A stretch of 42,609 bases of DNA from Elusimicrobiota bacterium (GTDB taxonomy: Bacteria > Elusimicrobiota > Elusimicrobia > Elusimicrobiales > UBA9959): positions 1 through 42,609 of the forward strand of contig DAOWCC010000001.1 in the NCBI GenBank assembly GCA_030639665.1, read 5' to 3'. Below, in pieces: positions 13,890 through 40,857 of this stretch. Every line of letters starts with the position of its first letter. Within the stretch, counting starts at the first letter, position 1. A program made the translations under genes and the position numbers. The notes below the pieces were generated by a model. The model was not told where the DNA came from. It did not search any database and was given only the letters and a program-made list of their open reading frames with translations.

Positions 13890-13892
13890 ACG

Positions 13893-13922
13893 GCAGGTCG
13901 AGATTAAGATTAAGGTTCAGAG
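13893..13922 (+). repeat. Hexamer-periodic element, copy 3 (5' arm only, followed by T9)
   Basis: gcag-gtcgag-attaag-attaag-gttcag-ag, then ttttttttt. Only a weak, partial 3' partner at 13933-13952. Confidence 0.6.
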
Positions 13923-37087: not shown

Positions 37088-37648
37088 ATGTATCTTATGC
37101 ATACCGATATAAAAGAAGTGCTTATAACCGAAGAACAGATTGCGGTTCGCGTTAAAGAGCTTGCTAAAAGAATAAACAAAGATTATAAAGGGCGATGCCC
37201 CGTTTTTGTTGGCGTGTTGAAAGGATGCGTATTTTTTCTTTCAGACCTTTTAAAACATATAACAATAGATTGCCATGTTGACTTTATGGGTCTTTCGTCT
37301 TATTCGGGAACCAAGTCAACGGGAATTGTGAGAACGATTTTGGATTTAAAAGAGAGCATAGAAGACAGGGATGTTATAATCGTGGAAGATATAGTGGATT
37401 CCGGCCTTTCAATGGAATATCTTCTGCATAATTTTAAAAGCAGACGGCCAAAGACGGTAAAAATATGCACTATGCTTGATAAGCCCTCCGCCAGAAAAGT
37501 TCATATTCCGGTTAAATACGCGGGATTTAAAATCCCTGAAAAATTTGTAGTCGGTTATGGCTTGGACTTTAATGAGCTTTACCGCAATTTGCCTTATATC
37601 GGAGTAATTAAAAAATCAGTTGTTGAAAAGGATAAGAAATGCCGCTAA
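37088..37648 (+). CDS. hpt: hypoxanthine phosphoribosyltransferase
   Basis: VFVGVLKGCVFFLSDL, IIVEDIVDSGLSMEYL, KYAGFKIPEKFVVGYGLD. Start at ATG 37088 or 37097. Confidence 0.92.
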   Translation: MYLMHTDIKEVLITEEQIAVRVKELAKRINKDYKGRCPVFVGVLKGCVFFLSDLLKHITIDCHVDFMGLSSYSGTKSTGIVRTILDLKESIEDRDVIIVEDIVDSGLSMEYLLHNFKSRRPKTVKICTMLDKPSARKVHIPVKYAGFKIPEKFVVGYGLDFNELYRNLPYIGVIKKSVVEKDKKCR

Positions 37649-39486
37649 AAAAAATCTCCAACAAAATACCCTTAAATAAAAATAATAGACAAATTCTATT
37701 TTGGGCCATTACCTTTCTTCTTTTTATCGCGCTTTACCATAACTTTAAAAATTTGGAAACCGTGAAACAAATTCCTTATTCGGAATTTAAACAAAAATTG
37801 AAGTCCAAAAAAATATTGAAAGTAACTATCGCGCCTAATTTGATAAAAGGAGAAATGCAAGATAGCGGCGTGGATATTAAGTTTAGAACTTTACCCCTTC
37901 CCGACGCTAAGCTTATTGAAGATTTGGAAGCGAGCGGTATTAAATCTTTCGCGGGCGAGCCGGATAGAAGCTGGGTTCTCAGTTTGATTTTAAATGTGGG
38001 TTGGATTTTCCTTTTCATTTTTTTATGGTGGTTCTTATTTTTAAGGCAAGGCCAAATGGGCGGCAAAAGCAGTCCTATGAGCTTTGGGCGTTCGCGCGCT
38101 AAAGAGCAGGATGTAAAAAAACAGAAAGTCTCGTTTAAAAATGTTGCCGGTTGTGACGAAACTCTGGAAGAGTTGAAAGATATAGTGGATTATCTTAAAA
38201 ATCCCAAAAAATATAAACACTTGGGCGGTATTCTGCCCAAGGGAGTGCTTTTATTCGGCCCTCCAGGCACGGGTAAAACTTTGCTTGCCAGAGCTGTCGC
38301 GGGGGAAGCGCAAGTTCCTTTTTACACCGCTTCAGGTTCCGAGTTCGTTGAGATGTTTGTCGGCGTTGGAGCTTCGCGTGTTAGAGATTTGTTTGAAAAA
38401 GCCAAGAAAACCGCTCCCGCCATAATTTTTGTCGATGAATTGGACGCGGTCGGCAGACGGAGATTTGCCGGCATAGGCGGCGGCCATGATGAAAGAGAAC
38501 AAACTTTAAATCAGCTTTTGGTTGAGCTTGACGGTTTTGAAGGCAATGAGAATGTAATTTTAATTGCCGCGACCAATAGGCCGGATGTGCTTGATCCCGC
38601 CTTGCTTAGGCCCGGACGGTTCGACAGGCGCATAAATGTTCCCAGCCCCGATAGTAAAGGCAGGGAAGAGATTTTGCAGGTACACGCTAAAAAAATAAAA
38701 CTTGCTCCCGATATTGATCTTTCAATTATAGCCAGAAGAACTCCCGGTTTTGTCGGCGCTGATTTGGCCAATATTATAAATGAATCGGCGATATTCGCGG
38801 CAAGAAAAGACAAAAAATTTGTTGAGATGGAAGATATTGAAGAATCCATAGAAAGAGTCATAGCCGGGCCGCAGAGAAAATCAAGAATAATATCCGATAA
38901 AGAAAGAAGAGTCATTGCTTTTCACGAAGCCGGCCATGCCTTAGTCGCCAAGATTTTGCCTCATACGGACCCCGTGCATAAAATATCCATAGCGCCCAGA
39001 GGGCCGGCCTTGGGCTATACTCTGCAATTGCCTATTGAAGATAAGTACTTAACCACCAAGACCGAGATTGTAAATAAACTTTCAATTCTTTTGGGCGGCA
39101 GAGCCGCTGAAGAAATAGAGTTTAATGAAATTACAACCGGAGCGCAGGATGATTTATCCAAGGTTACCAATTACGCTCGAAAAATGGTTCTTGAATTTGG
39201 CATGAGTGAAAAAATAGGTTTAATAACTTTAAGAAAAGATGAGGACGAAGTGTTTTTGGGCCGCGATATTGCCAAACAGCCCGGTTATTCCAATGAAATG
39301 GCTAAGAATGTCGATGATGAAATTAAGAGAATAGTTAATGAATGTCATATAAAAACAAAGGAAATACTGGTTGATAAAAGACATTTGCTAACCGCTTTGG
39401 CTGAAAGGCTTTTGGAAAAAGAAGTTCTGGAATCTGAAGAAATTGACAAGATAGTTAATGGCGAAGCCGCTCCTCAAACCGCTTAA
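37639..39486 (+). CDS. ftsH: ATP-dependent zinc metalloprotease FtsH
   Basis: Two TM segments, [20 protein letters not shown] region, HEAGHA. Confidence 0.97.
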
Positions 39487-39488
39487 AG

Positions 39489-39873
39489 GCAGATTAAGAT
39501 TAAGGTTGAGGTTAAGAACAGCGAGATAAACTGCCAAAACAAATCTCCCCCCCAGCCCCTCTTTGTCAAAGAGGGGAGAAAGAATAAAACTTCCCCCTTT
39601 ACAAAAGGGCTTGTCCTTCCGAAGTCTTGGCGAAGGAGGAGGTTAGGGGGATTTTGACAGAATAAACGGCTCAAAACATTTGACAGGATTAACAGGATAA
39701 AACAGAAGCAAATCGCAGAGGACGCAGAAAAAGAATATTGAGAATAAAAAAACTTTGCGGACTCTCTGTGTGAAATCTCAGTGCCCTCTGCGTTAAAAAG
39801 AGTTCCCCGCCAAAGGCGGGTTAATTTATCTGCAGTATTTGTATTCTTGGGCTTGACCTTAATTTTAACCTGC
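39489..39873 (+). repeat. Composite element: hexamer-hairpin arms (copy 5) separated by a 325-nt GC-rich, hairpin-dense insert
   Basis: 5' arm 39489-39518 is gcag-attaag-attaag-gttgag-gttaag-aa. 3' arm 39844-39873 is ttcttgggcttgaccttaattttaacctgc. 28 of 30 positions pair (5 G-U). Confidence 0.75.
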
Positions 39874-39895
39874 AGTTCTATTTAAGGATTTATTA

Positions 39896-40672
39896 ATGTA
39901 TCTTCATTACGCGAAAAATATCATAGATATATTTGTTGTTTACGCCATAGTGTACCATTTGATACTCCTTATCAAGGGCACCAGAGCCATGCAGGTAATA
40001 TGGGGAGTTTTTATTCTCGCCATCATTACAGCCATAGCCAAACTTTTAAATTTATCCGCCACCATGTGGATGATGCAGCAATTTTGGCTTGCCGGTATTT
40101 TTCTTTTAATCGTGGTGTTTCAGCCTGAAATTCGTTCCGCTCTCGCTAATATAGGAACCAATCCTTGGGGAAGGATTTTGATGCCGCAAGAATATAAATT
40201 TATAAAAGAAATGATAAGCGCTTTGCGGGCCGCTTCTCACGACAGGACCGGAATGATTATTGTTCTTGAGCAGGATATGGGGCTTAAAGATATTATGGAC
40301 ACCGGCATTATGGTGAACGGAGAAGTAAGCAAAGAGCTTTTGCTCACAGTATTTTTTAATAAGACTCAGCTTCATGACGGGGCGGTAATAATAAGCAATA
40401 ATCGTCTGGTTGCCGCCGGCTGTATATTGCCTTTGACCGAACAAAGAGAGCTTTCAATGATGCTTGGCATGAGGCATAGAGCCGCTCTTGGTCTGAGCGA
40501 AATTTGTGATTCGATTATAATTGTGGTAAGCGAGGAAACGGGGCAAATCGCTTTGGCAAGAAACGGCAAGCTTCAGCAAGCGGTGGATATTGATAAACTT
40601 GAAAATATGCTTTATACTCTTTACCGCTCAAAATCGGAAAAAACTTTACTTAGAAGGCAGTCAAGACAATGA
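39896..40672 (+). CDS. cdaA: diadenylate cyclase CdaA (three N-terminal TM segments plus DAC domain)
   Basis: LHDGAVIISNNRLVAAGCILPLT, RHRAALGLSE, VVSEETGQIALARNG. Confidence 0.93.
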   Translation: MYLHYAKNIIDIFVVYAIVYHLILLIKGTRAMQVIWGVFILAIITAIAKLLNLSATMWMMQQFWLAGIFLLIVVFQPEIRSALANIGTNPWGRILMPQEYKFIKEMISALRAASHDRTGMIIVLEQDMGLKDIMDTGIMVNGEVSKELLLTVFFNKTQLHDGAVIISNNRLVAAGCILPLTEQRELSMMLGMRHRAALGLSEICDSIIIVVSEETGQIALARNGKLQQAVDIDKLENMLYTLYRSKSEKTLLRRQSRQ

Positions 40673-40767: not shown

Positions 40768-40827
40768 GTCGCGTTGTTTGTCGTTCTTTTAATAAGTTTC
40801 CATATTTGATAAGTTATCGTAGTAGCG

Positions 40828-40857
40828 GCAGGTTGAGGTCAAGATTAAGGTTGAGAA
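40828..40857 (+). repeat. Hexamer-periodic element, copy 6 (5' arm only)
   Basis: gcag-gttgag-gtcaag-attaag-gttgag-aa. No 3' arm before the next gene. Confidence 0.6.

Follow-up and report, generated by a model that had tools for sequence, protein, structure and literature searches.

Between ftsH and cdaA in a metagenome-assembled genome (MAG) of the phylum Elusimicrobiota lie two complementary arms that enclose a long segment packed with smaller hairpins. Is this segment an RNA gene, a mobile unit or repeat DNA of another kind? The initial annotation of the window (the whole stretch of DNA that was analysed, 42,609 nt in length) had put forward two readings: that shorter copies of the hairpin elsewhere are deletion derivatives of a larger mobile or RNA-encoding unit, or that a long-range helix closes off an independent small-RNA domain. 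Here we compared the region with its own assembly (G000; 2.26 Mb in 276 contigs) by BLASTN, and with the genomes of relatives. G000 is a fragmented MAG that is 92.6% complete, and the order of repeats is described as assembled.

Structure of the ftsH–cdaA spacer

The two arms lie 325 nt apart and pair at 28 of 30 positions, as first described (23 Watson–Crick and 5 G–U pairs on the + strand); on the − strand only 24 of the 30 positions pair. The left arm starts 2 nt past the TAA stop codon of ftsH, and a second match to it occurs in the window at three mismatches or fewer, against 0 expected in shuffled sequences. All five of the local hairpins listed in the initial annotation are present. They comprise a perfect 10-bp stem at 39556–39576, a hairpin at 39595–39609, a hairpin at 39614–39637 that is the mini-hairpin repeat described below, a long-range pairing of 39714–39728 with 39778–39792 (80% complementary) and a terminator-like hairpin at 39806–39820 that is followed by TTAATTTAT. 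The loop sequence directly inside the left arm can pair with 39822–39833. The insert had also been called much more GC-rich than the genome, which is overstated: its GC content is 43.7%, and the window and genome have 38.9% and 38.7%, respectively. The 63-amino-acid open reading frame on the − strand falls within repeat DNA and matches no Pfam family; as suspected, it is spurious. Downstream, the ribosome-binding site of cdaA (AAGGA at 39884–39888) is intact, as it is in relatives. Table 1 gives the features of the locus.

Table 1 Features of the ftsH–cdaA locus and hexamer-armed hairpins of the window
Feature	Position in window	Strand	Description
ftsH	37639..39486	+	TAA stop at 39484–39486; Pfam Peptidase_M41 (4.7e-71), AAA, AAA_lid_3, FtsH_ext
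Left arm, purine-rich, of RRTTRA-hexamer hairpin repeat	39489..39518	+	Near-identical orthologous arm in L149
Hairpin loop, 5′ remainder	39519..39534	+	CAGCGAGATAAACTGC; common to the start of the L149 loop; 0 copies elsewhere in genome
‘Leader’, last 11 nt	39535..39545	+	CAAAACAAATC; precedes module A in other copies
Module A	39546..39661	+	Outer helix UCCCCC/GGGGGA round two hairpins, CCCCUCUUU/AAAGAGGGG and CCCCCUUU/AAAGGG
Nested mini-hairpin repeat	39610..39640	+	GTCCTTCCGAAGTCTTGGCGAAGGAGGA; within 3′ strand of second hairpin of module A
Module C	39653..39713	+	Two 26-nt direct repeats with TTTGACAG / ACAGGAT motifs
Module D	39714..39800	+	Long imperfect hairpin CGCAGAGGACGCAGA ... TCAGTGCCCTCTGCG
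Common tail of mosaic family	39801..39829	+	GAGTT, GC hairpin CCCGCC-AAA-GGCGGG, then TTAATTTAT; terminator-like in scan
Hairpin loop, 3′ remainder	39830..39843	+	CTGCAGTATTTGTA; 0 copies elsewhere in genome; compare AATTTAATGTATGGTTTTAATTTG in L149 loop; possibly a degenerate head-like remnant
Right arm, pyrimidine-rich, of hexamer hairpin	39844..39873	+	Orthologous arm in L149
cdaA	39896..40672	+	Pfam DAC (1.7e-40), CdaA_N
Hexamer hairpin loci in window (n = 6)	2070, 10403, 13891, 31602, 39487, 40826		13891 and 40826, left arm only

The arms belong to a dispersed hairpin family

The arms are part of a dispersed family of hairpin repeats built from RRTTRA hexamers. The family pattern consists of arms of RRTTRA units, starting GCAG and ending CTGC, and the window arms match it with 0 mismatches. 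A pattern scan found approximately 25 arm matches in G000, and the reversed pattern, used as a control, found 0 across 10 genomes. The purine arm usually comes first, a few nucleotides past a stop codon and on the sense strand, an arrangement that is also seen at the ftsH–cdaA locus; it follows a gene on the same strand in 12 of 17 family members. The other hexamer hairpins that we inspected in G000 have loops of 13 to around 120 nt without GC-rich modules, and the ftsH–cdaA hairpin is the only one among those inspected that holds modules of the mosaic described below.

Some members depart from the two-armed form. The arms at 13891–13921 and 40826–40856 of the window are solo left arms with no recognizable right arm, and two left arms occur in tandem, 56 nt apart, at C226:10668–10751.

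A modular mosaic fills the loop

Searched against the rest of the genome, the insert is multi-copy throughout 39535–39829, where each 6-nt bin has approximately 9–22 other matches; the 16 nt and 14 nt that adjoin the arms have almost no other copies. This content of around 295 nt aligns collinearly, with 85% identity, to a complete unit at C228:1467–1763. The complete unit runs from TAATTTA-NN-head through module A (a C5/G5 three-way junction), module C (ACAGGAT repeats) and module D (a long CGCAGAG/CTCTGCG hairpin) to a tail that consists of a GC hairpin and YTAATTTA. The window copy lacks the head (GTATAGGAATTTCAAAG) and has private differences from the C228 unit: the mini-hairpin, an insertion of 6 nt and a deletion of 17 nt. 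Part of the A–C–D–tail order is also found at C184.

Individual modules are present in about 5 to 46 copies, many of them at contig ends. Module A occupies 46 non-overlapping loci in the genome (nhmmer), and its window copy scores 67.9 bits with R1, a covariance model of the module. The same method found 18 loci of module C (5 full copies at 92–99% identity and 13 partial copies) and approximately 25 copies of module D. Modules occur at more than 40 loci that lack hexamer arms.

The tail closes several different module families: 34 stringent members carry 15 different stems in the same frame, an observation from a search that required perfect pairing, and not a test of covariation. The head block TAATTTA-NN-GTATAGGAATTTCAAAG was found at around 33 loci (for example, C152:9375, C204:5672 and C228:1470), where it tops many different repeat units. 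TAATTTA stands at −9 to −3 ahead of these approximately 33 heads, with T at −9 in 39 of 45 cases and nothing conserved further upstream. In tandem arrays, a head comes immediately after the tail hairpin of the unit before it, and a single TAATTTA is common to the tail and the next head.

The mini-hairpin within module A, GTCCYTCCGAAGCCTTGGCGAAGGAGGA(C), constitutes a small repeat family of its own (28–30 nt). It is missing from 14 of 17 full copies of module A; the genome has 14 copies of it in various settings, and further copies at 87–97% identity are found in other genera. In G022 (L087, G022:C42), it is repeated in tandem every 66 nt; this array is not CRISPR-like because the ‘spacers’ resemble one another too.

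Distribution in related genomes

The closest relatives of the window FtsH are encoded by Elusimicrobia MAGs. In three genomes of the same genus (G001–G003; CdaA 91–93% identical), the ftsH–cdaA spacer is only 14–38 nt in length and contains neither the hairpin nor the insert; it is made up of the stop codon, a few bases, a ribosome-binding site and the ATG. A metagenome contig, L148, has a spacer of the same length range, again with neither repeat. A second metagenome contig, L149 (CdaA 88% identical), has the same hairpin in the same place, with near-identical arms and a loop of 77 nt. Presence/absence variation of the kind that the initial annotation had raised is seen in this spacer.

The L149 loop has no module A, C or D. 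It does contain a leader-like piece (p = 0.017) and a piece that resembles a tail–head junction (p = 0.003), both assessed against shuffled sequences; because these mosaic pieces are retained, gain or loss must have occurred inside the ftsH–cdaA loop. In a cdaA tree, the window is placed beside G002, which lacks the hairpin (support 94/96), and L149 falls outside that pair. The hairpin that is common to the window and L149 thus implies several losses, two gains at one spot or recombination.

Copy numbers of the two families vary sharply between genomes. Hexamer arms number 25 in G000, 1 in G001, 4 in G002, 27 in G003, 11 in G004, 0 in G005 and 55 in G007, and the corresponding counts of module A, obtained with the covariance model, are 56, 0, 22, 5, 0, 48 and 44. 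Module A was found in 5 of the 13 genera of the family, with 56, 0, 22 and 5 copies within the genus of the window and 48, 44 and 44 copies in two other genera. As the two sets of counts are uneven in different genomes (11 arms and no module A in G004; no arms and 48 copies of module A in G005), the hexamer and mosaic families are independent, and the window structure is therefore a nest and not one unit.

Variation between sister genomes extends to other sites. Queries made by joining the coding flanks of 15 other mosaic-bearing spacers were searched against the three congeners. At C179, C204, C175, C178, C231, C48, C206 and C144, a mosaic of 186–549 nt in G000 corresponds to approximately 17–60 nt in at least one congener; at other sites, the congener has a different or shorter set of modules.

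Genomes from two other genera have hairpin repeats of different kinds in the ftsH–cdaA spacer, which thus seems to attract palindromic repeats repeatedly. In G022 (L111, G022:C3:1400-2670), the spacer has a hairpin with arms built from a GTAGGC-like hexamer (CTAGTAGGCCTGTATGCTTGTAGGCGGGTAGGC ... GCCTACAAGCCTACTAGCC), and in G016 (L109, G016:C320:29400-30720), a spacer of around 300 nt has AT-rich ATCAAAGATTAAAAATCAAA arms.

Folding and placement relative to genes

On the + strand, the 396-nt region has a minimum free energy of −123.8 kcal/mol (z = −3.9) and the arms close the domain. The opposite strand is just as stable (−121.7 kcal/mol, z = −4.1), and the insert by itself reaches only z = −2.2. 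The arm helix without the insert favours the sense strand (−37.0 versus −26.3 kcal/mol for antisense) because it is rich in G–U pairs. Among the hexamer hairpins, the strand that is sense to the preceding gene, with the purine arm first, is the more stable in 8 of 10 members, by a mean of 4.6 kcal/mol.

Strand asymmetry of the GC-rich modules was considered as a sign of RNA function, and none was found: the folding energies of these modules show no strand bias, with a mean difference of 0.08 kcal/mol for module D and values of −123.8 and −121.7 kcal/mol for the two strands of the region. The stems of module A consist of near-invariant C5/G5 runs, both within and between genera; they are conserved in sequence and not by way of compensatory change. 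As the stems are nearly invariant, covariation in module A says nothing for or against structure. Given the lack of a folding strand bias and the conservation of the stems in sequence, we find no evidence of RNA function for the GC-rich modules.

Spacers that contain module A separate co-directional genes in 22 cases, convergent genes in 9 and divergent genes in 2; the corresponding numbers for module D are 8, 10 and 2. Within co-directional spacers, sense copies outnumber antisense copies by 18:4 for module A (two-sided binomial, approximately 0.004) and by 7:1 for module D. An extragenic palindromic mosaic that lies after genes and is rare between divergent ones fits the placement of REP/BIME-type repeats, and either RNA-level selection or strand-specific insertion is compatible with this pattern.

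Nature of the locus

We conclude, with a probability of about 0.8, that this lineage acquired non-coding dispersed repeats, nested at three levels, in a normally tiny ftsH–cdaA spacer. The locus would thus be a BIME/BOX-like composite of two undescribed families. Because the insert is a scattered modular repeat and sister genomes lack both the hairpin and the insert, we interpret the locus as nested repeat DNA and not as a dedicated small-RNA gene. The repeats are multi-copy, modular, patchily distributed among relatives and present or absent at orthologous sites, and at this locus they are nested. The first level of the nest would be an (RRTTRA)n-armed hairpin repeat 2 nt past the ftsH stop codon; the second, in the loop of the hexamer hairpin, would be a headless copy (around 295 nt) of an ‘A–C–D–tail’ element; and the third would be a 28-nt mini-hairpin repeat within module A. 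Such repeats probably spread as non-autonomous DNA that is moved in trans by some enzyme.

On the ftsH–cdaA transcript, the composite is probably passive, provided that the spacer is co-transcribed and folds as RNA. The sense-favoured, G–U-rich arm helix would shut the insert into a closed domain, and in this way the operon could tolerate it. At most, the composite might act as a 3′ stabilizer or partial terminator for ftsH; the tail hairpin together with UUAAUUUAU may cause some termination. The likeliest effect on the host would be neutral to mildly regulatory.

The suspicion that a mobile unit is involved was right, and the proposed long-range helix is real and closes the insert in the 396-nt fold; it is an independent small RNA within it that the evidence does not support. 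A broader form of that proposal would make the insert one of many multi-copy structured small-RNA genes, with the head as promoter and the tail as terminator, and with the arm helix presenting or insulating an RNA domain, for example, for protein sponging or for cis regulation of ftsH or cdaA. We consider this distinctly unlikely. The window copy is one of a multi-copy repeat and lacks the head; we found no sigma-70-like promoter site in 39300–40000 and no Rfam match at gathering thresholds in the whole window (Rfam 15), where the best permissive match, to SNORA51, is at chance level (20.2 bits versus a gathering threshold of 50; E = 0.22). Very stable helices, C5/G5 stems that are conserved across five genera and a z score of −3.9 for the whole region would suit an RNA family; however, the stems are kept in sequence and not by compensatory change, both strands fold equally well and the insert alone has only z = −2.2. 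The sharply bounded conserved 5′ block and hairpin 3′ end of the units, and their preference for the sense orientation, also speak for RNA genes, whereas the absence of the element from the orthologous spacer in three congeners and, in cases such as G001, from the entire genome of a congener speaks against them.

Deletion from a larger unit, the other initial proposal, may have operated at the ftsH–cdaA locus and is not supported as a general rule. For an ancestral long form, with the short hexamer hairpins as derivatives that had lost their cargo, speak the L149 loop, in which leader-like (p = 0.017) and junction-like (p = 0.003) pieces persist without A, C or D, and a weak leader-like match in the loop at window 2067 (p = 0.04). 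The other tested loops have no significant similarity to leader or junction, save for that loop and a weakly leader-like one at C274 (p = 0.03), and general homology of the loops to the mosaic was rejected as clearly significant for L149 only. The same scenario is at odds with the more than 40 module loci that lack arms, with the single module-holding hairpin among those inspected and with the independence of the families (11 arms to 0 copies of module A in G004; 0 to 48 in G005), and we judge it very improbable. Finally, the loop content might be an error of short-read assembly, in which a path through repeat copies was routed across the hairpin of a fragmented MAG; repeats do break this assembly, with many copies at the ends of its 276 contigs. 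An artefact of this kind is nonetheless extremely unlikely: the contig continues through unique sequence on both sides, both arms are correctly ordered and oriented, the A–C–D–tail order recurs independently at C228 and partly at C184, and the window copy has private differences (the mini-hairpin, the 6-nt insertion and the 17-nt deletion).

Relation to known repeat systems

We found no paper on such repeats in Elusimicrobia. BIMEs are bacterial interspersed mosaic elements that are composed of REP palindromes and are known from enterobacteria and pseudomonads, and REP/BIME sequences are carried on mRNAs as stable 3′ hairpins. Like BIMEs, the mosaic is extragenic and composed of short palindromic modules in variable order, lies for the most part downstream of genes, in spacers that are co-directional or convergent and seldom divergent, and varies strongly in copy number between close relatives. 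Unlike BIMEs, it has units of fixed polarity (head at the 5′ end, hairpin tail at the 3′ end), has no sequence similarity to them and no conserved GTAG-type REP head, and is not found beside the Y1 (RAYT-like) genes of G000, which have other palindromes on their flanks.

Pneumococcal BOX elements (boxA-boxB(n)-boxC) are similarly modular, non-coding, strongly folded and multi-copy, with variable module content and an intergenic position within operons. They belong to a different phylum and differ in sequence; the mosaic described here has more types of module (A, C, D, the mini-hairpin and others that feed the same tail) and is nested inside a second repeat family. Non-autonomous, palindrome-associated elements derived from IS200/IS605 resemble the mosaic in their lack of terminal inverted repeats, their orientation bias and a 3′-end hairpin that is followed by a short conserved end; TAATTTA lies at the left junction of the mosaic, and Y1 transposase genes are present in G000. 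The mosaic differs from them in that it has no recognized 5′ subterminal hairpin, 15 variants of the tail stem and no copy that was found linked to a transposase. REP palindromes are DNA targets for insertion sequences (PMC1525189), which also places one element inside the palindrome of another extragenic repeat; in that case the guest is an insertion sequence, whereas here it is a non-coding mosaic. As nesting was seen once in G000, it does not establish a target preference for hairpin loops.

These findings document, in an uncultivated phylum, two or three families of repeats that had not been described. They also call for caution in annotation, as an extended intergenic region that is GC-rich, folds well and has a 30-bp helix at its base resembles a new RNA gene; here it consists of nested repeats. 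Repeats of this type fragment assemblies and expand the spacers of essential operons from around 15 nt to around 400 nt. Because they differ sharply between sister genomes, they could be used as strain markers.

Candidate routes of mobilization

The mosaic element has no terminal inverted repeats: its head GTATAGGAATTTCAAAG is not the reverse complement of the tail hairpin with CTAATTTA. The entire hexamer hairpin forms a single long inverted repeat. A hairpin is present 8 nt from the 3′ end of the mosaic, and no 5′ subterminal hairpin was recognized. Given the lack of terminal inverted repeats, the TAATTTA-like word at both junctions, the 3′ hairpin and the orientation bias, a single-strand (IS200/IS605- or REP/RAYT-like) or site-specific route fits better than a cut-and-paste MITE. 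Comparisons were made between species, the spacers of which have diverged, and recovered neither an unambiguous target-site duplication nor an empty site attributable to a single event: the empty site that corresponds to C179 is the left flank joined to the right flank with no duplication, and at C178 and C144 an A/T word of 5–6 nt could be duplicated. A Dif/Xer-like reading of the tail–head junction was rejected, as no inverted symmetry was apparent by eye.

G000 has three PF01797 (Y1 transposase) genes, on C134, C230 and C92, and none of the modules A, C and D or the tail adjoins any of them. A RAYT link for the mosaic was rejected, as the Y1 genes on C134 and C230 are flanked by unrelated inverted repeats of their own (AAAAGGGGACGGTTCTA; GGGGTCAGACCCC). 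These two genes (C134:5764–6432 and C230:5174–5866) are RAYT-like, have open frames of 225 and 249 amino acids, respectively, and are bracketed by AAAAGGGGACGGTTCTA / TAGAACCGTCCCCTTTT and AAATGGGGTCAGACCCCATTT / TGACCCCATTT. Together with their inverted repeats, they are a separate REP/RAYT-type system in G000.

A more specific reading is that the head-to-tail units (TAATTTA-NN-GTATAGGAATTTCAAAG ... GC hairpin-CTAATTTA) are cassettes of an undescribed site-specific or single-strand insertion system that moves structured non-coding cargo around Elusimicrobiota genomes. We regard this as unlikely; if it were true, each tail would recreate the TAATTTA attachment word. This would account for the tandem arrays and also for the landing of a unit by junction-like sequence already present in the ftsH–cdaA loop (as in L149). 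The fixed head and tail with TAATTTA at both junctions provide a concrete handle for finding the mover.

An integron cassette or attC array was also considered and rejected. The best TIGR02249 match in G000 scores 80 bits against a cut-off of 265, which points to ordinary Xer-like recombinases; because the genome is 92.6% complete, this absence of an integron integrase is not absolute. Among the relatives, only a genome of another genus, G007 (L169, G007:C99:3711-4634), encodes a full-scoring integron integrase (TIGR02249, 410 bits versus the cut-off of 265); hexamer hairpins are most numerous in that genome (55), and copies of module A are many. In G000, a gene for an Xer-like tyrosine recombinase (C144:13838–14659) directly adjoins a mosaic-bearing spacer of 497 nt (C144:13289–13787), the counterparts of which are approximately 57 nt in G002 and 367 nt in G001.
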